In this document: positions 3,730 to 13,490 of the stretch, piece after piece
Layout: each line of letters opens with the position of its first letter
Numbering within the stretch: the stretch's first letter is position 1
From: a virus
Taxonomy: Duplodnaviria > Heunggongvirae > Uroviricota > Caudoviricetes
DNA length: 18,945 bases
Direction: 5' to 3' (one strand)
IMG/VR virus record: IMGVR_UViG_3300021400_005610
Translations under genes and position numbers: made by a program
The notes under the pieces: model-generated
What the model saw: the letters and a program-made list of their open reading frames with translations, nothing else
Told to the model about the DNA's origin: nothing
Database searches by the model: none

Positions 3730-4104
3730 ATGGCAAGAAAGTCTGTTTCAGCTTTGAATGCGGAGCTGTCGAAGCATCAGAAGAAGATGAATGCTCTGCG
3801 TCAGGAGCTTAAAGAAGCTAAGAAGATTACGTTTACGAGTACTGGCGAAGTTGCGTGCAATATTTTTCCTGAATTGCTGGAGTTAGACGGTGAGTGCGCA
3901 GGCTGGTTTGAAGCAGTTGCAAAATTGATCGAAAGGCATAAAGCAGAGTTTGATTCTCTTTGTGGGAAGAAGACATCTGCACCTATAGAGCAGGTTGCGG
4001 CTGCGCCTACATCTGATGTCGTGTATGGCAGAGAAGGTCATGAACTTCCTCCTTCTGTACAGCGACCAGCATCCTCTGTAGAGGCTACTGAGTTTAATGG
4101 CTAA
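3730..4104 (+). CDS. Hypothetical protein with N-terminal coiled coil
   Basis: ATG at 3730 follows GAAAGGAG. LNAELSKHQKKMNALRQELKEAKK is helical/coiled-coil. The stop overlaps the next start. Confidence 0.8.
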   Translation: MARKSVSALNAELSKHQKKMNALRQELKEAKKITFTSTGEVACNIFPELLELDGECAGWFEAVAKLIERHKAEFDSLCGKKTSAPIEQVAAAPTSDVVYGREGHELPPSVQRPASSVEATEFNG

Positions 4105-4819
4105 ACAAAAGTTTTACGCAGTAAAGGTTGGTAGAACTCCAGGTATCTATTTGACTTGGGACGATTGTAAGTCCCAAGTGGATAAGTTTGAGAATGCCGA
4201 GTATAAGAGTTTTGGGAAACTCGACGAGGCATACGAATGGATGTCATCTGAGAAATCAGATGACGCACAGAAAGATAATTCTGTGCCACTTCCTAATGGG
4301 CCGTACACATTTGTTGACGGTTCGTTCAACGCTGCAACGGGTGTTTACGGGTACGGCGGATTTTTGTGTGTGCATGGTAGGAAATATCCTTTGGAAGGTA
4401 GCGGAAAGGACCCTGAGTTAGCAACGATGAGAAATGTTGCTGGTGAACTTGAAGGGTCAATGGCGGCTGTTCGTAAAGCTGAAGAGTTAGGTCTTCGTGA
4501 AATTACGATGCTTTACGATTATAAAGGGATTGAAGAATGGGCCGTTGGCAGATGGAAAACTGAGAAGGCAGGTACGTCTGCTTATCGGGAATTTATGTCT
4601 GATAGTAATCGCAGTGTGAAGGTCTCGTTTCAGAAGGTGCCTGCGCATACAGGTATTGAAGGAAATGAAATGGCTGATGTTATGGCAAAGCATGCTGTTG
4701 GTATGTCTTTGACAAAGAAACAGAAGTCATTGTATGATCAGGTGTATGCGATAGCAGACAGGGACGGGTATGATGTATCAGAACCCGTGTCTACGGAAGA
4801 AAGGGAGATCCAATTATGA
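4097..4819 (+). CDS. rnhA: Ribonuclease HI with N-terminal hybrid-binding (viroplasmin/Cauli_VI-like) domain
   Basis: N-terminal FYAVKVGRTPGIYLTWDDCKSQV...YKSF. The catalytic acidic residues fall in FVDGS, NVAGEL, YDYKGI and HTGIEGNEMAD. Confidence 0.92.
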   Translation: MAKQKFYAVKVGRTPGIYLTWDDCKSQVDKFENAEYKSFGKLDEAYEWMSSEKSDDAQKDNSVPLPNGPYTFVDGSFNAATGVYGYGGFLCVHGRKYPLEGSGKDPELATMRNVAGELEGSMAAVRKAEELGLREITMLYDYKGIEEWAVGRWKTEKAGTSAYREFMSDSNRSVKVSFQKVPAHTGIEGNEMADVMAKHAVGMSLTKKQKSLYDQVYAIADRDGYDVSEPVSTEEREIQL

Positions 4820-7136: not shown

Positions 7137-7175
7137 AAACCCAGGAGGATGTATGTCCTTCTGGGTTTTGATTTT
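7137..7175 (+). terminator. Hairpin, probable intrinsic terminator of the 3730-7098 operon or an attenuator
   Basis: aaacccaggaggat-gtat-gtccttctgggttt followed by tgatttt. Confidence 0.55.
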
Positions 7176-7208
7176 AATATCATATTTTTTAGATATGAGG
7201 TGAACAAT

Positions 7209-9635
7209 ATGGCAGACGAAAATAAAAATCTTGAGAATGAAAATGTAACTCCTGCTGGTGCTATTCCTGCTGGATATTATGAAAATGATGAGGGTCAAAT
7301 TACGATGGATCCTGCTGCATGGACGGCGTCTGCCCGAGAGGATACTGTAGCAGAAGTTACACTTGAAGATATTCCTCTTAAAGAAGGTAAGGGTGGACAA
7401 CTTGCCTTTGATTTGCATTCTATTGGAAGAGGATATGTCAAAGGGGCTTCTGAAGCGTTGACTCCTGAGGAAGCTGCTGCACAGGAAAAAGAAAGAGAAG
7501 CTATAGCTGCTGATATGGAAAGCTATCAGCGTGCTTTTAATGAGTATTCTGGTGTTTATATGGACGCACCTGTACAGAATGATCCTGTGCCAGGTGATTC
7601 TAGTCGCACACTTGATCCTAACAAACGAGAATATGTTGGTGAGGCTGGTACGTTCCAATATGATCCGAAAGAATTTGCGTTGAAGCAAATGCAGGCAAAT
7701 ATGCCTGATGGCTCTATGAAGTCCATTGAGACATTGGTTTATATTGGTCAGGAAACGGACGGTTCGAAGATTCATATTCCTGATGGCGTGCGTAATATGG
7801 CTGGTATGTTTGCGAATAGTAAGCTTAAGAGCGCACCTCAGATTCCAATGGGTGTTCAGAATATGGATATGGCCTTTATGGGCTGTGAGAATTTGAAATC
7901 AGCAAAGATTACAATTCCACCGACGGTTCGTGATATGAACCTTACTTTTGCGGGTTGTAAGAATATGACCAAGGGTCCTGTTGTTATTCCAGGTACTGTG
8001 AAGAACGCAGATTATGCGTTTGCTCAGTGTGCGTCATTGAAGACTACACCTCGTTTGGGTCATGGTATGGAGTCCATTTCTGGCATTTTTGCTGATTGTC
8101 GTAATTTGACAAAAACACCAACGATTCCTCAGACGGTTCGTCGGGCAGATTATGCCACGTCGAATTGTCCTGGTATGGATGGTGCGCGTGATGCAAAAGC
8201 GCAAGAGCGTTTGGAAAAGGCAAGAGCAAAACAGTATGAAAAGTTGACTCGACCTACTTTGGGTGCAAAGTTAGGTCAGAGTATTTCTTATTTGATGCAG
8301 GCACATGCACTTCGTAAGATGGGTTATGGTGCTGTTATGGCGCCTATTATTGCTCACAGTATGCGTAAGAATGGTGTGATTGCAAAAGATTTTCGTAGCG
8401 GCTTTGGTATGATGATGATGAATCGTAACCCGATGATGGGTCGTATGATGATGATGAATGCCAAGGATAGGGTTGAAAAGAGTGAAAAGCAACGTCAAGC
8501 TATGATTGATCGTAAGATGGCTGCATGGGATCGTGCTCATGATTCGTATTCTTATGGCTTGATTGAAACGAAGAATATTTTTGCTAAAGCTGGTCTGAAT
8601 GGCGAGAAAGATGCTAAGAATAATATGTTCCTCCGTATGGCTAATATGGATGGTTCGCAGTTGAATATTTATCGTGAGACGCACGGTAGGAGTGCTGCAT
8701 ATGATCAGCAGGAACGTGTGCTGAATGCTGCCAGCCAGAATGGGGTTGGTTTAGATGCACAGGCTCGTCATCAGTATGCTACGTGGTATAAGCAACAGAT
8801 GGCTCAGTATACGCAGTATTTCCGTGATGCAGATGCACAGATTGATCAGATGAACTATTCCAAGGCTCAGCGTGCTGATGCTAAGGAAGGCTTGGGTCTG
8901 ATGAAAGATGTTGGTCTTTCTCCGATTGTTGATTCCATGCGTAGGATGCAGCAGGATCATCAGTTGTTTAATGATGGTGATATGCGTGATATTGACCGTA
9001 TGATGAAGAGTATTGGCGTTGAGCCTGTATTCCAAGGTCATGTAGAACGTCAAGGTCAATCTCAGATTCATGTGAATTTCAGAGATATTGGACCGCAAGA
9101 ATCTCAGGCTGATAATCCTCAGCCAATGCATGATGATGTTAATCGTCAGCAACAGTCAACGCAACAATCTGACCATCAACAGCCAGCGCAACAGCCTAAG
9201 CATCTTCAACAGCCTGCGCCAGAGCCTAAACCGCAACAGCCTCAGGCTACAGCATCTTCGAGTGCTTCAAATACAGTTACTGTTCTGAAAGAGAATGCTC
9301 GTATTTGGACGCCAAAGGATGATTCACCTAAGTTGGTTGTAAGTATTCCGCATGAGAAGTCACCGAATGGTGTTGGTACGGTTTATATTCCGTTGTATCA
9401 GATGCATGCCAATGAGAACGGTAGTTACGAGGTGAATGTGAAGAATTCAGATTATGCAGTTCATTATAAGGGCGCACCGAAGGAAGGCGACCATATTACT
9501 GCATCTGAATTTAGTTCACGTGTGTCGTCAGGTGTTATGCCTACAACTGGTAAGCCAACTCGTCAAGAACAGGCAGAAGCTGTTAGTGCGGGTGTGACGA
9601 AGGATCAACCACAGGGTCCCGAGATGTCTAAGTAA
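7209..9635 (+). CDS. Large multidomain protein with BspA/DUF285-like leucine-rich repeats, helical region, Q/P-rich linker and small C-terminal beta domain; no signal peptide
   Basis: ATG at 7209 follows GAGGTG and is preferred to 7149. About 6 repeats of ~22 aa have the form IPxxVxNMxxxFxxCxxLkxxP. Confidence 0.8.
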   Translation: MADENKNLENENVTPAGAIPAGYYENDEGQITMDPAAWTASAREDTVAEVTLEDIPLKEGKGGQLAFDLHSIGRGYVKGASEALTPEEAAAQEKEREAIAADMESYQRAFNEYSGVYMDAPVQNDPVPGDSSRTLDPNKREYVGEAGTFQYDPKEFALKQMQANMPDGSMKSIETLVYIGQETDGSKIHIPDGVRNMAGMFANSKLKSAPQIPMGVQNMDMAFMGCENLKSAKITIPPTVRDMNLTFAGCKNMTKGPVVIPGTVKNADYAFAQCASLKTTPRLGHGMESISGIFADCRNLTKTPTIPQTVRRADYATSNCPGMDGARDAKAQERLEKARAKQYEKLTRPTLGAKLGQSISYLMQAHALRKMGYGAVMAPIIAHSMRKNGVIAKDFRSGFGMMMMNRNPMMGRMMMMNAKDRVEKSEKQRQAMIDRKMAAWDRAHDSYSYGLIETKNIFAKAGLNGEKDAKNNMFLRMANMDGSQLNIYRETHGRSAAYDQQERVLNAASQNGVGLDAQARHQYATWYKQQMAQYTQYFRDADAQIDQMNYSKAQRADAKEGLGLMKDVGLSPIVDSMRRMQQDHQLFNDGDMRDIDRMMKSIGVEPVFQGHVERQGQSQIHVNFRDIGPQESQADNPQPMHDDVNRQQQSTQQSDHQQPAQQPKHLQQPAPEPKPQQPQATASSSASNTVTVLKENARIWTPKDDSPKLVVSIPHEKSPNGVGTVYIPLYQMHANENGSYEVNVKNSDYAVHYKGAPKEGDHITASEFSSRVSSGVMPTTGKPTRQEQAEAVSAGVTKDQPQGPEMSK

Positions 9636-9657: not shown

Positions 9658-10809
9658 ATGGCTAAAACTTTAGGTGAGATTGCTCGTTCCTACCAAGGTA
9701 ATAATGATCAGGGCGATTTCGAAGAATATCGCAATCGTAAAGGTAAGGTTCTACCTGGTCACAATCCGACAGTAGGTGGTGGTAAAGCTCAATATTTGAG
9801 TGAAACTCCTGGCGAATCTGAACAGTTCTTGGAACAAGAAAAGTCAGAAGCTGAGAAAAAGTTGGAAGATGATGCCGAATTGACTGAAGAGCGTACCGAA
9901 GAGTATGATGAATCTTTGGAGCATACGAACGAGACAATTTCGGAAGAGTTATATACAACAACAGACGAGCGTGAGCAGATTGAACGTGTTCGTCGTCGTA
10001 ATCGCGAACAGATGCTGGCAATGCAAGAGCGTCATGAGCGTTTGCGTGATAAGCTCGATAAAGCCATTGCTGCAGAATATCAGCGTCGTAAAGATTTGTA
10101 TGCAATTGAGAATGAAAAGAAAAATACGCTGGATTATGCCTATAAGGTATATGGCGATCAGGCAGATGTAGAAGCGATTTTCGATTCGGCATCTGCAGCG
10201 AAGCGTGAAGCTTCTCCTGAAGTGAGAACTTTGAGCGAGCAGATTTCATTCGATATTGATAATAAACTGCATGATAAAGATCAAGTGACTGTGGTTACGG
10301 AGACTGGACATGTTCGTATCATGGACAGAGAGCTTGCTGAAGCTATGCAGTTATATACAGAGAGAAAGAATGGCAATCCGATGTTGGAACAGGCTGCTGC
10401 TGGTTACGATGAATATCGTGACACGTTTAGCGATACGAAAGTAGTGGAGCGTGCAGAAGTAGCGGAAACTGATCGTTTCATTCATGAGGATTTCGAGTTT
10501 ACTCGTGACGAAGAAGAAAAGCTCGCTGAACTTCAGCGTCTTGTGAGCGAAACGGATAAGCAGGCTGCGAAATTTGAGGATAAGACGCCGCAGACGATGA
10601 CTCCAGAAGAGTATGCTCAGTATAATCGTGAGCGTAGGTTTAAGGAGTATGGTTATCCTGATGCTGGTGTCAATTATGATTATCAGTTGACAAAGGAAGG
10701 TATGTATGAATGGAATGGTCGTCCACTTCCATCTGCAATGTCTTCGCCGACAATGAATCGTGAGTTGCAAGCCGAGCGTGAGCCTCAAGTGGATCAACCG
10801 AATGCTTGA
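9658..10809 (+). CDS. Hypothetical acidic, coiled-coil-rich protein (383 aa)
   Basis: RBS GGGAGGT, a long ORF with E/R-rich helical segments, and no recognisable catalytic motif. Confidence 0.82.
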   Translation: MAKTLGEIARSYQGNNDQGDFEEYRNRKGKVLPGHNPTVGGGKAQYLSETPGESEQFLEQEKSEAEKKLEDDAELTEERTEEYDESLEHTNETISEELYTTTDEREQIERVRRRNREQMLAMQERHERLRDKLDKAIAAEYQRRKDLYAIENEKKNTLDYAYKVYGDQADVEAIFDSASAAKREASPEVRTLSEQISFDIDNKLHDKDQVTVVTETGHVRIMDRELAEAMQLYTERKNGNPMLEQAAAGYDEYRDTFSDTKVVERAEVAETDRFIHEDFEFTRDEEEKLAELQRLVSETDKQAAKFEDKTPQTMTPEEYAQYNRERRFKEYGYPDAGVNYDYQLTKEGMYEWNGRPLPSAMSSPTMNRELQAEREPQVDQPNA

Positions 10810-10832
10810 TTTATTCAGAAATGAATATTATG

Positions 10833-10870
10833 AAAAGCCTTTGAATAATTTTCTGTTCAAGGGCTTTTTT
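10833..10870 (+). terminator. Intrinsic terminator
   Basis: aaaagcctttgaa-taattttctg-ttcaagggctttt plus T-tract. Confidence 0.75.
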
Positions 10871-10873
10871 CTA

Positions 10874-10902
10874 TTGATTTATCAGTCTTTTATTGGTATA
10901 AT
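10874..10902 (+). promoter_or_regulatory. Sigma-A promoter of the lipoprotein/radical SAM operon
   Basis: TTGATT-17-TATAAT with TG extended -10. Confidence 0.75.
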
Positions 10903-10948
10903 ACAAAAAGGTAAATGTCGATATCCTTGAGTAAGGAGGTTGTAGTTT

Positions 10949-11188
10949 ATGAAATCACCAAAGGAAAAGATTGCTGTTGGTGTGCTTCTTTTGGGTGCAA
11001 CTGTCGGTATGACAGGTTGTGTTCCGAAGCATCATCGTATGTATACGGCGTATGGTGTTGTTTCACCAGTGGAGAGCATACTGAAAGAGCAAGCGGAAGA
11101 CGTTGCGAAAGATAATGATGCAACAAATACAGAAGCATCGGAAGGTTATGATGGTTCTGCTGATGACGAGGAAAAGTCTGATTCTTGA
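10949..11188 (+). CDS. Small lipoprotein, candidate radical-SAM substrate (AYG motif 9-11 residues after the lipidated Cys; acidic tail)
   Basis: RBS AAGGAGG. The signal MKSPKEKIAVGVLLLGATVGMTGC ends in a lipobox-like MTGC. The mature part begins CVPKHHRMYTAYGVVSP. The gene lies 15 bp upstream of the radical SAM gene. Confidence 0.78.
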   Translation: MKSPKEKIAVGVLLLGATVGMTGCVPKHHRMYTAYGVVSPVESILKEQAEDVAKDNDATNTEASEGYDGSADDEEKSDS

Positions 11189-11203
11189 TTGAGGGTTTAA
11201 TTT

Positions 11204-12295
11204 ATGAGTGTTTATGAAGATTTGCGTCGGCTGAAGTTAAGTGAACTTGAGACTGGGGCAGAGGAAGTAAAGGATGCCATGATGCATCCTCGTTTGCGCC
11301 AATTGTTTTTTGAAGTCACAAGTCAATGCAATCTTGCTTGCAAGCATTGTGGTTCATCGTGTACGATGAAAGGTAGAAGTGGTGTTCCTGTTGAGATTTT
11401 AGAGAATACAATTATTGAATTGGAAGTCGATCCAGAATATAAGAACCATATGCCTTTTATTGTTCTTACTGGTGGTGAACCTATGATGCGTTCTGATATT
11501 CGAGCGATTGTTGATATGCTTTATGCACATCATTTGCCTTGGGGGATGACAACCAATGGCACTCTCGTTACGGCAGAAGACGCAAGGTATTTTGTGAGTC
11601 ACGGAATGTATTCCGTGGCTGTGTCTATTGATGGCACGAAAGAATACCACGATGCTTTTCGTGGCGTAGAGGGCTGTTTTGATAAAGCTTTTGAGGGTTT
11701 ACAGCATTTCATAGATGCTGGGGTGCCGAAATCGAATGTCACAACTGTGTTGAATCATGTTAATATAAAGGATATCAATGAGATTTACGAGATCGTATCT
11801 CCTTATGATATTGATAGTTGGCGTTTGCTTAGTTTGGAGCCAATCGGACGTGCTCGTTGTCGGAAAGACCTTTTATTAGATCCAGATGATTATATTTTCA
11901 TTATGAATTATATCATCGATATGCGTCGCAATAATATTCCTGTGGAATACGGTTGCATGCATTATCTTGGACTGACATGGGAACGAGAGGTTCGTGATTG
12001 GTATTGGTATTGCGGAGCTGGTATTGAAGTTGCCAGTATTATGGCAAATGGTAATATCGGTGCGTGTCTGGATATTGAGCGAAATAGTACAACGATTCAG
12101 GGTAATATCTATGAAGATGATTTTTTGAGTGTTTGGCGAAAGAAGTTTCAAATTTTCAGACACGATTTAGCGAAAGAAACGTCAGGTTGTGACGGTTGTG
12201 AGCATGCAAAGTATTGTAGAGGAGGTGCCCATCATACGTATGATCATGTTTTACATGAGCAGCGTTTATGTATGAAGGGAGTGCTTTTTGATTAA
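11204..12295 (+). CDS. Radical SAM/SPASM enzyme resembling the rSAM/lipoprotein system family (TIGR04133-like)
   Basis: CNLACKHC (Cx3Cx2C), LTGGEP, PWGMTTNG and VSIDG. The SPASM-type C-terminus reads YCGAG..IMANGNIGAC..GNI..CDGCEHAKYCRGG..C. The radical SAM call is secure; the subfamily assignment is from memory. Confidence 0.9.
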   Translation: MSVYEDLRRLKLSELETGAEEVKDAMMHPRLRQLFFEVTSQCNLACKHCGSSCTMKGRSGVPVEILENTIIELEVDPEYKNHMPFIVLTGGEPMMRSDIRAIVDMLYAHHLPWGMTTNGTLVTAEDARYFVSHGMYSVAVSIDGTKEYHDAFRGVEGCFDKAFEGLQHFIDAGVPKSNVTTVLNHVNIKDINEIYEIVSPYDIDSWRLLSLEPIGRARCRKDLLLDPDDYIFIMNYIIDMRRNNIPVEYGCMHYLGLTWEREVRDWYWYCGAGIEVASIMANGNIGACLDIERNSTTIQGNIYEDDFLSVWRKKFQIFRHDLAKETSGCDGCEHAKYCRGGAHHTYDHVLHEQRLCMKGVLFD

Positions 12296-12799
12296 ATGAC
12301 ACGTATAAAGAAATGTCTTCAGTTTTTAATTCCTTTCTTCACGGGTATTTGCGTGACAGTATTGTTGAATTTCTTTTGTTTTGACGTTCATGTTGTGAAT
12401 GGCAGTTCGATGTCGATGGCCTTGTATGACGGCGACGTTGTGATTGCACAAAAGATGTTTATGAACGATATTGATAGAGGAGATATCGTTATATTGAAAG
12501 ACACACGGTTGAATCAGCTTATGATAAAACGTGTGATTGGTCTTCCAGGTGAAACAATACAGTTTGATGAAGAGGGCTATACTTATATAGACGGGGAGAA
12601 ACTGTCATATGAATATCAATTTCCTACCGTAGGTATGATTTACGATTATGATAATGTGACATTGGACGATAATGAGTATTTCGTCGCTGGTGATAATCGT
12701 TACGATAGTTATGACAGTAGGTATTTCGGTCCTGTAGAACGACAAAATATTCGGTCTATAGCAATCTTTCGATTGTTTCCGTTTGAAATATGCCGTTAG
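12296..12799 (+). CDS. lepB: Signal peptidase I (S26 family)
   Basis: N-terminal TM helix, catalytic Ser in VNGSSM, catalytic Lys in MIKRVIGLPGE, and box E YFVAGDNRYDSYDSRYFGPV. Confidence 0.93.
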   Translation: MTRIKKCLQFLIPFFTGICVTVLLNFFCFDVHVVNGSSMSMALYDGDVVIAQKMFMNDIDRGDIVILKDTRLNQLMIKRVIGLPGETIQFDEEGYTYIDGEKLSYEYQFPTVGMIYDYDNVTLDDNEYFVAGDNRYDSYDSRYFGPVERQNIRSIAIFRLFPFEICR

Positions 12800-12816
12800 G
12801 AAGGTGGTGACGAAGC

Positions 12817-13440
12817 GTGGCTAGAAATGGTCCCAATAAGACGAATATGAGTAAATCTGAGCAATGCAAGGTAATTGCTGGTGTGCTTATTACTGTGTTA
12901 TTCGTATCTCGTCTGATTAGCGAATGGCTGTTCTATGTAATCTTTGTGGCTTTGGCTGCGTATGGTATTGCGTGGATTTATCGTAAGTTCAAGCAAGTAC
13001 AAGCAGGTAATGGCAATCTGACAGAAATGAATCAACGAGCCACTGGTGTGGCTCAACCTCGGTTGAATCTTTCGGCTAGGTCGGGTGTGTCTGTAGAATT
13101 GCCAGGGAACTTTGAAAAAGAAGTGGATGAACTGAGAGCACCTGATGTCGTAAAGTATAAGCTGTTGCGACTTGGTGCTGAATCGGGTGCTACTACGTTA
13201 GCAGATTTGATGACATATGAAAAGACACCTGAAGTAATTAAGAAGTATATTACGAAAGGTTCTGATGGTCCGAAAATTCAAGGATTTGATGAGGACGGTT
13301 GTCATGTTAGCGATGATATTTTGTATGATCCAGACGAGTACGAATCTGTAAGTGAAGAAGATGTTCGGAATCCCGATACGATTCTTCTGAATGGTAAGCC
13401 TGTAAAGATTAAAGAACAGAAATCTCCTTTCGCATGGTGA
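12817..13440 (+). CDS. Hypothetical membrane protein (two N-terminal TM helices, acidic soluble domain)
   Basis: GTG start after GGAAGGTGG. Hydrophobic segments VIAGVLITVLFVS and WLFYVIFVALAAYGIAWIY. Confidence 0.78.
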   Translation: MARNGPNKTNMSKSEQCKVIAGVLITVLFVSRLISEWLFYVIFVALAAYGIAWIYRKFKQVQAGNGNLTEMNQRATGVAQPRLNLSARSGVSVELPGNFEKEVDELRAPDVVKYKLLRLGAESGATTLADLMTYEKTPEVIKKYITKGSDGPKIQGFDEDGCHVSDDILYDPDEYESVSEEDVRNPDTILLNGKPVKIKEQKSPFAW

Positions 13441-13453
13441 TGATCGGTTGTTG

Positions 13454-13490
13454 AAAGGTCGGCACGATATGTTGTGCCGATCTTTTTTTT
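13454..13490 (+). terminator. Intrinsic terminator ending the radical SAM operon
   Basis: aaaggtcggcacga-tatg-ttgtgccgatcttt followed by a long T run. Confidence 0.85.

Follow-up and report, generated by a model that had tools for sequence, protein, structure and literature searches.

Radical S-adenosylmethionine (SAM) spliceases cut out the equivalent of tyramine at X-Y-G sequences in which X is variable (PMC11414181, PMC9811515, PMC11626197), and the invariant Y-G after this variable residue is their defining splice site (PMC11414181, PMC9811515). Two splice tags of PlpXY, for example, are PIRP(L/G)YGLPI and AVAAGYGVVFP (PMC10533398, Table 1). Scott et al. (Chem 2022) surveyed how diverse spliceases are; as summarized in two later papers (PMC10533398, PMC10849128), their work comprised 939 predicted and 27 tested systems. 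Here we describe a 79-residue prolipoprotein gene and the radical SAM/SPASM gene that follows it in the viral record IMGVR_UViG_3300021400_005610, a stretch of 18,945 nucleotides referred to in full as the window. The prolipoprotein is very likely the substrate of the adjacent enzyme, and Tyr35-Gly36 is probably the site at which it is modified. Tyramine splicing is the leading candidate for the chemistry, although we put it forward only tentatively. The order of the genes, the family placement and the conservation of the motif are observed; pairing, site and chemistry are inferred from them and from a structural model.

The pair has a catalogued counterpart in the families TIGR04133 and TIGR04134, which are hypothetical equivalogs of NCBIfam; the Prokaryotic Genome Annotation Pipeline (PGAP) names their members ‘TIGR04133 family radical SAM/SPASM protein’ and ‘radical SAM-associated putative lipoprotein’. 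The locus in the window is related to this pair, shares features with spliceases at the level of its substrate motif, and differs from both in the ways set out below.

The precursor peptide and its partner enzyme

The peptide gene lies at 10949..11188 on the plus strand, as do all features described below unless noted. Its product begins with a basic n-region (MKSPKEK) and a hydrophobic h-region, followed by the lipobox GMTG-C24, so that a signal peptide of residues 1-23 precedes the core and an acidic, low-complexity tail. The codon of Cys24, the predicted lipidation site of the lipobox M-T-G-C, occupies 11018..11020, and the motif A34-Y35-G36-V-V-S-P40, the predicted modification site, spans 11048..11068. 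Four close and two distant homologues of the peptide were found, all of which keep the lipobox Cys, Y35, G36 and P40, and this shared pattern indicates that the pairing of peptide and radical SAM gene is more than chance. The lipobox reads LTGC in the relative L094 and MSGC in L093, and the acidic tail varies freely. In the subclade that the window forms with its nearest relatives, the motif takes the form X-Y-G-V-x-x-P, with A, L or M as X and with one or two sites, each behind a conserved lipobox (AYGVVSP in the window, AYGVTVP in L094, LYGVYQS and MYGVSVP in L093). The original prediction had called the small open reading frame (ORF) a lipoprotein precursor and its core motif the only conserved-looking part of the mature protein; the signal-peptide features, the invariant Cys24 and the homologue alignment agree with both statements. 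The peptide has no match in NCBIfam or Pfam. Other window proteins were considered as further YG(PP) substrates and rejected, the YGP motif being absent from all real genes and frames of the window.

Homologues of the enzyme at 41-47% identity number in the hundreds and come from gut and rumen Lachnospiraceae, Oscillospiraceae, Erysipelotrichaceae and Coriobacteriia, as well as from Treponema, Anaerolineae and Planctomycetes. At 60 of 77 loci of this wider family, the ORF just upstream of the radical SAM gene carries YG.?P (median 3.5 sites), a count in which Y and G are fixed by construction. The partner consensus is N-E-P-x-D-V-Y-G-P-P-P-D-F-E, where position -1 is V, L, I or A. Most partners are lipoproteins; in 25 of the 30 with a clear lipobox the first YG falls 2-13 residues past the lipidated Cys, and several read C-V-Y-G-P-P. 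Apart from the YG-bearing partner, no recurrent neighbour was found beside wider-family enzymes. The lipoproteins of TIGR04134 carry CEYGSP (Parabacteroides) or C-YGMP (Treponema) right after the lipobox Cys. The window peptide lacks V-Y-G-P-P repeats and has its single A-Y-G-V-V-S-P instead, so that relative to the YGPP-lipoprotein family only the Y, the G and a later P are kept. Because Tyr-Gly, usually with a proline within four residues, is all that survives across the branches, strong comparative evidence points to YG as the functional site. The original prediction had raised conservation of YG in neighbouring small ORFs, and it is indeed found in the subclade, in the wider family and in true TIGR04134 partners.

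Some partners are of another type. In Anaerolineae, Planctomycetes and some Bacillota (L065, L068, L069, L070, L074), the partner is a double zinc-ribbon protein of about 90 residues with a central C-I-Y-G-P-P-P. The enzyme family therefore serves cytoplasmic-looking substrates too.

The enzyme gene (11204..12295) encodes 363 residues and is assigned through family matches, a phylogenetic tree and an AlphaFold 2 (AF2) model. Pfam Radical_SAM (72.6 bits) and SPASM (27.2 bits) both match. The CX3CX2C radical SAM cluster motif (C42, C46, C49) is encoded at 11327..11350 and is invariant across 26 homologues; a fourth conserved cysteine, C53, comes after it. Among NCBIfam models, TIGR04133 (rSAM_w_lipo) scores best at 259.1 bits, followed by AhbD (heme b synthase, 134), TIGR04053 (123), TIGR04103 (114), NirJ2 (114) and MftC (112). 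The locus had been proposed as a version of the TIGR04133/TIGR04134 pair, and this holds in part: the best family match and the gene order fit, but the enzyme falls short of the curated threshold of 425 bits, and TIGR04134 does not match the peptide. In the SPASM region the enzyme reads C329-x2-C332-x5-C338-x3-A342, in which the fourth Cys of CX2CX5CX3C is replaced, and H344 is invariant. The full seven-Cys SPASM motif is present in spliceases (the Nostoc and Azospirillum enzymes), in MftC and in an enzyme from Agathobacter rectalis. The AF2 model has a predicted local distance difference test (pLDDT) score of 92.8, and the solved folds nearest to it are the peptide maturases SkfB, SuiB, CteB, anSME and ChlB. 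Searches with the operon proteins against PHROGs and PADLOC were uninformative, and weak pVip matches reflect generic radical SAM likeness.

A maximum-likelihood tree was built with labelled reference enzymes taken from annotated plasmid records. The window enzyme and four relatives (50-68% identity) form a five-member, element-borne subclade with 100/100 support. This subclade is nested within the YGPP-lipoprotein radical SAM family (99/98 in the 14-row set, 90/81 in the 17-row set), which in turn is sister to two true TIGR04133 members in a joint clade supported at 99/98. NirJ, TIGR04347, TIGR04053 and MftC make up a loose third group. The window enzyme falls neither inside the splicease clade nor inside the NirJ group.

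Two observations on related enzymes stand apart from this placement. The homologues P0019 and P0038 (545-565 residues) carry a C-terminal GNAT acetyltransferase fusion (PF13302/PF00583), which hints at an acyl-transfer step coupled to the radical SAM reaction in those lineages. The Agathobacter rectalis radical SAM/SPASM enzyme (L099:2495-3649, NZ_CP143948.1) scores 235 bits against TIGR04103 and 185 bits against TIGR04133, and may be a link between the splicease and TIGR04133 lineages. Its gene has no visible upstream peptide; a major facilitator superfamily (MFS) transporter gene lies on its 3′ side and a GNAT gene further downstream.

The enzyme was co-folded with the 79-residue precursor, SAM and three 4Fe-4S clusters. 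The complex score of 0.71, against 0.01 for the best control, passes the controls; this mark is reached by 58 of 80 solved complexes and by 2 of 110 mismatched pairs, a calibration that is only rough here given the custom alignments and included ligands. At least 73% of contacts recur between runs, with a partner pLDDT of at least 47. In the model, peptide residues 28-40 (HHRMYTAYGVVSP) touch the inner barrel at the GGEP strand 85-90, WGMTT 112-116, C251, 268-272, 288-290 and H344. Signal-peptide residues 1-15 are placed on the enzyme surface, where they meet the N-terminal helix (3-11) and the stretches 198-206, 238-246 and 261-266. This placement suggests a second role for the signal peptide, as a leader.

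A sequence of events can be proposed from this arrangement. Residues 1-15 would bind the enzyme surface as the leader, and the enzyme would thread residues 28-40 into its barrel for a radical reaction at Tyr35-Gly36. The modified peptide would be exported by Sec, lipidated on Cys24 and stripped of its signal peptide, and the modified site would end up about 11 residues from the lipid anchor at the cell surface. Using the signal peptide as leader would ensure that modification precedes Sec export and would allow the leader to be removed without a dedicated protease.

These data also bear on the possibility that the small ORF encodes an ordinary lipoprotein while the enzyme acts on a cofactor or other substrate, such as a heme or tetrapyrrole intermediate, as AhbD and NirJ do. 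Such a role would be in keeping with AhbD being the best model match after TIGR04133 and with the lack of a settled order at the deep nodes of the tree. We nevertheless regard it as very improbable, since the pairing with a YG-bearing ORF is seen repeatedly in several phyla and the enzyme has no other conserved neighbour, the YG motif persists even where the partner type changes from lipoprotein to zinc-ribbon protein, and the complex model passes its controls. Moreover, no heme-pathway genes are present in the window, and the enzyme does not fall inside the NirJ/heme family in the tree, so the grouping with non-peptide radical SAM families that the original prediction had named as a refuting outcome is not seen. 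The adjacent prolipoprotein remains the more likely substrate.

Chemistry at the Tyr-Gly site

Tyramine splicing is favored as the reaction because it explains an invariant Y-G with drifting residues at X and at +1/+2, and because it needs no further genes. Sequence likenesses between substrates point the same way. The window sequence T-A-Y-G-V-V-S-P agrees with the PlpXY tag AVAAGYGVVFP at YGVV.P (PMC10533398). A Nostoc plasmid encodes a Nif11 precursor next to a bona fide TIGR04103 enzyme (853 bits); this precursor ends in ...SIALYGLPPELF and contains LYGLPPELF, a core that VYGPPPDF of the wider family resembles. The best families of this Nostoc splicease-type enzyme other than its own are AhbD (154 bits) and TIGR04133 (152 bits). 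Partner peptides of TIGR03913 enzymes in Azospirillum start with PIRMLYGGA and IKPYGVAI. Being short and found by looking for them, these likenesses are leads rather than proof.

A number of observations weigh against splicing. The likeness to splicease substrates extends over 5-7 residues. The enzyme scores 113.8 bits against TIGR04103 (PlpX-type; cut-off 725) and 79.6 bits against TIGR03913 (cut-off 591.75), no better than against AhbD, NirJ2 or MftC. In the tree, the window enzyme is excluded from the separate splicease clade (98/94), which unites TIGR04103 and TIGR03913 with the Agathobacter enzyme, and no branching order is settled among the deep groups. The splicease-type enzyme of the original prediction is therefore not recovered by model scores, by tree placement or by the auxiliary-cluster cysteines: C53 and C251 are extra and the fourth Cys is missing, a pattern common to the YGPP family and TIGR04133 and absent from spliceases. 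The modelled contact positions show no enrichment in identity to spliceases (0.29 and 0.13, where the overall values are 0.27 and 0.26), and the complex is itself a prediction in which the partner’s own fold is uncertain. Our literature search, whose scope did not extend to the survey of Scott et al., found no paper, experimental or otherwise, on TIGR04133 or the YGPP family. Lastly, in the 98% identical locus L001 (8001-9400; compare window positions 11073 and 11670) the peptide gene has lost 1 bp after the YG motif and the radical SAM gene has gained 1 bp within a G run; these changes are either long-read assembly errors or signs of cassette decay. A 90-residue ‘homologue’ of the peptide, P0125, was rejected as a frameshift artefact of gene calling on L001.

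Several of these points would also fit with the same pair and the same site undergoing other chemistry, in which Tyr35 or a neighbour is cross-linked (as a cyclophane or ether), epimerized, hydroxylated or otherwise changed and the backbone stays uncut. The separate enzyme lineage, the different ligand set of the auxiliary cluster and the lack of enriched identity at contact positions all allow for this, and the closest folds make thioether or C-C cross-links (SkfB, SuiB, CteB) or oxidize a residue (anSME). Precursors of radical SAM cross-linking enzymes of the triceptide type also typically repeat short motifs, in line with the median of 3.5 sites in the wider family. Conversely, the Tyr and the following Gly are the only strictly kept residues. 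The +1/+2 positions drift between branches, from PP in the family to V-x in the subclade and S/M-P in TIGR04134 partners, and no conserved Cys, Lys, Asn or Trp offers itself as acceptor for a cross-link. A cyclophane would not need the invariant Gly after its target, whereas splicing does. Taken together, we give modifications of this kind rather less than an even chance, about the same as splicing.

As a single reaction, splicing remains our leading candidate, and the full account in which pairing, site and splicing all hold together is likewise offered as tentative. A broader proposal, that the TIGR04133-like superfamily is a second, independent lineage of backbone spliceases that uses a Sec/lipoprotein signal peptide as the leader typical of peptides made on ribosomes and modified after translation (RiPPs) and displays an electrophilic ketoamide close to the lipid anchor of lipoproteins on the surface of gut and rumen bacteria, appears more doubtful.

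Operon and element context

The pair belongs to a longer transcription unit. A terminator hairpin (10832..10869; 16-pair stem, then a T run) ends the upstream gene, which encodes a 383-residue protein, and delimits the operon; related elements keep a hairpin at the equivalent position. It is followed by a sigma-70-type promoter, TTGATT-17-TATAAT with a TG extension (extended -10), at 10874..10902, and by the Shine-Dalgarno sequence AAGGAGG of the peptide gene at 10933..10939, the latter identified by direct reading. In L094, too, the block CTATTGATTTAT...TATAAT stands upstream of the peptide gene. The gap between the peptide and radical SAM genes is 15 bp, and the close spacing behind a strong promoter that had been noted earlier is borne out by the coordinates, the ORFs and the extended -10 promoter. 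The unit does not end at 12295, as first proposed. The stop codon of the radical SAM gene (TAA, 12293-12295) abuts the ATG of a gene for a P-type S26 signal peptidase I (12296..12799; TIGR02227, 118.5 bits against a cut-off of 47; Pfam Peptidase_S26). The encoded enzyme has a membrane helix at its N terminus, and its translation shows SM, KRVIG and GDNxxxSxDSR boxes, so that the Ser-Lys boxes of signal peptidase I are present. A gene for an orphan membrane protein of 207 residues with a conserved C-terminal YESV...NGK...K..PF follows at 12817..13440, always 3′ of the S26 gene, and one strong intrinsic terminator (13453..13486; 15-pair stem, then a T run) ends the four-gene operon.

The 207-residue protein belongs to no family in Pfam, NCBIfam, PHROGs or PADLOC and is rare: a set of 5.8 billion proteins yielded only 3 clusters, and one of 1.84 billion yielded 17 representatives. 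An ESM Atlas search with it returned a single lead at 0.76, which was not used.

The four-gene order is kept in the subclade at 50-68% enzyme identity, which together with the shared promoter and terminator and the abutting start of the S26 gene raises the possibility that the peptidase and the 207-residue protein are functionally tied to the lipopeptide. The peptidase could trim the modified peptide, or could be bound or inhibited by the modified site so that the copy on the element is regulated or protected. In LPP clusters, the signal-peptidase homologue LppS has been proven to act as leader peptidase for RiPPs (PMC13381572), serine proteases are inhibited by ketoamides (PMC11626197), and a motif about 11 residues from the lipid anchor would lie near the active site of signal peptidase I. 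However, LppS is a soluble, SipW-type enzyme that works with a RiPP recognition element (RRE), whereas the S26 enzyme of the window is a membrane-anchored Ser-Lys enzyme, and lipoproteins are processed by signal peptidase II. None of 80 chromosomal wider-family loci has an S26 or 207-residue-protein homologue nearby. In the related elements L110/L111 and L109, moreover, S26 and membrane-protein genes stand directly behind the same hairpin and promoter with no peptide or radical SAM gene, and in L110 and L109 the block CTATTGATTTAT...TATAAT lies directly upstream of the S26 gene. A functional tie is accordingly improbable, and the more specific idea that a ketoamide site additionally acts on the co-transcribed type I signal peptidase is most improbable of all.

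As obligate partners of the cassette, the S26 and 207-residue proteins were rejected, since L110, L111 and L109 carry this pair without it. The occurrence of the pair behind the same promoter in cassette-free form instead marks the peptide and radical SAM genes as a two-gene cassette that occupies the interval from promoter to S26 gene in an operon of the element backbone. The peptidase and the 207-residue protein are best read as co-expressed neighbours from the element backbone, not as required partners, and the peptide-radical SAM pair is best read as a self-sufficient two-gene cassette. In L110 the S26 and membrane-protein genes are flanked by the same backbone genes as in the window (a homologue of the 383-residue protein, and DUF5131).

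Further observations concern these relatives and the rest of the window. The cassette-free pairs lie at L110:3240-4657 and L109:138-1236 and are relatives of window 12296-13440; in L110 a gene for a 71-residue IF-1-like protein (PF01176) stands between the S26 and membrane-protein genes. Upstream of the cassette, window 7149-9635 encodes an 828-residue protein that combines BspA-type LRR_5 repeats with two methionine-rich runs (MMMMNRNPMMGRMMMMN) and a segment rich in Gln/Pro, and this gene and that of the acidic 383-residue protein (9658-10809) are kept together in related elements. The DUF5131 (phage Gp37/Gp68-like) protein at 15772-16755 matches the PADLOC candidate defence models PDC-M41B (97 bits) and PDC-M30B (95 bits); its gene belongs to the conserved backbone of the element family, with 67% identity in L110. 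On the minus strand, 2221-2667 carries a dCMP/cytidine deaminase-like gene, the annotation being that of the near-identical L107. The gene at 4097-4819 encodes an RNase H1-like protein whose N-terminal domain is Cauli_VI. Other window products include SHIRT/Cna_B and DUF285/Listeria-Bacteroides-repeat surface proteins and DUF2130 and DUF4349 proteins. Near-identical copies occur on metagenome contigs of 62 kb and 88 kb, one of which carries McrBC and a DNA methylase. A search with the whole-window DNA against phage and plasmid collections gave no match. The DNA is of Bacillota type and element-borne, as the original prediction had supposed.

Relation to described systems

If Tyr-Gly editing is correct, hundreds of species from several phyla in gut and rumen would modify their surface lipoproteins at the protein level in an as yet unstudied way. 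If the reaction is splicing, it would place ketoamide groups, which are protease-inhibitor-like and bio-orthogonally reactive, on membrane-anchored proteins of anaerobes, beyond the secreted peptides of cyanobacteria and proteobacteria. It would also mean that a maturase can use a Sec signal peptide as its leader, and would provide very small, one-site substrates of 79 residues for enzyme engineering.

Tyramine spliceases (PlpX/PlpY-PlpA, PcpXY, RhaX/RcsX/RasX; TIGR04103 and probably TIGR03913) likewise comprise a radical SAM/SPASM enzyme acting on a ribosomal product. As in the window peptide, their targets feature an invariant Tyr-Gly after a variable residue, in YGVV.P and YG(L)PPE(L/M)F contexts (PMC10533398), and binary spliceases similarly consist of two genes with no RRE (PMC11414181). 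Their substrates, however, have a Nif11/NHLP leader, whereas the window peptide has a Sec/lipoprotein signal peptide and no GG cleavage site. Splicease products are released, while the product here would stay anchored by its lipid. MftC (TIGR03962) also resembles the window enzyme, at 112 bits, in having a SPASM domain and in acting on the tyrosine of a small ribosomal peptide near Val/Gly (MftA ends in GVY). In that system the Tyr is C-terminal and the RRE protein MftB is needed; the Tyr of the window peptide is internal and no RRE is present, and the two enzymes are distant in the tree.

The TIGR04133/TIGR04134 pair shares more with the window. Its lipoprotein gene is directly upstream on the same strand (also at L095 and L096), its enzymes have the C53/C251 cysteine pattern, and its partners carry Y-G-x-P near the lipobox Cys. 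A true Parabacteroides member scores 607.9 bits against TIGR04133, compared with 259.1 for the window enzyme, which is sister to the members in the tree. True partners score 207.1 and 43.7 bits against TIGR04134 (cut-off 39.8), in contrast to the window and subclade peptides, which have no match. These partners have a folded domain after the motif, whereas the window peptide has a mature part of 55 residues with an acidic tail. The catalogued pair is found in Bacteroidota or Treponema, and the window system in Bacillota-type, element-borne DNA.

The YGPP-lipoprotein family is likewise a two-gene unit with a lipoprotein partner, its enzymes being 41-47% identical to that of the window. Its partners carry V-Y-G-P-P in about 3.5 repeats, in contrast to the one or two X-Y-G-V-x-x-P sites of the window subclade. 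In the subclade, the pair appears as a cassette on an element backbone, co-transcribed with a signal peptidase I gene. The pair type is already catalogued computationally as TIGR04133/TIGR04134, and the window adds to it a minimal, single-site, element-borne variant in which the prolines are replaced, together with the reading as a cassette insertion and a complex model that passes its controls. This variant indicates that the two prolines of the motif are dispensable and Tyr-Gly is not, and that the cassette moves as a two-gene unit.

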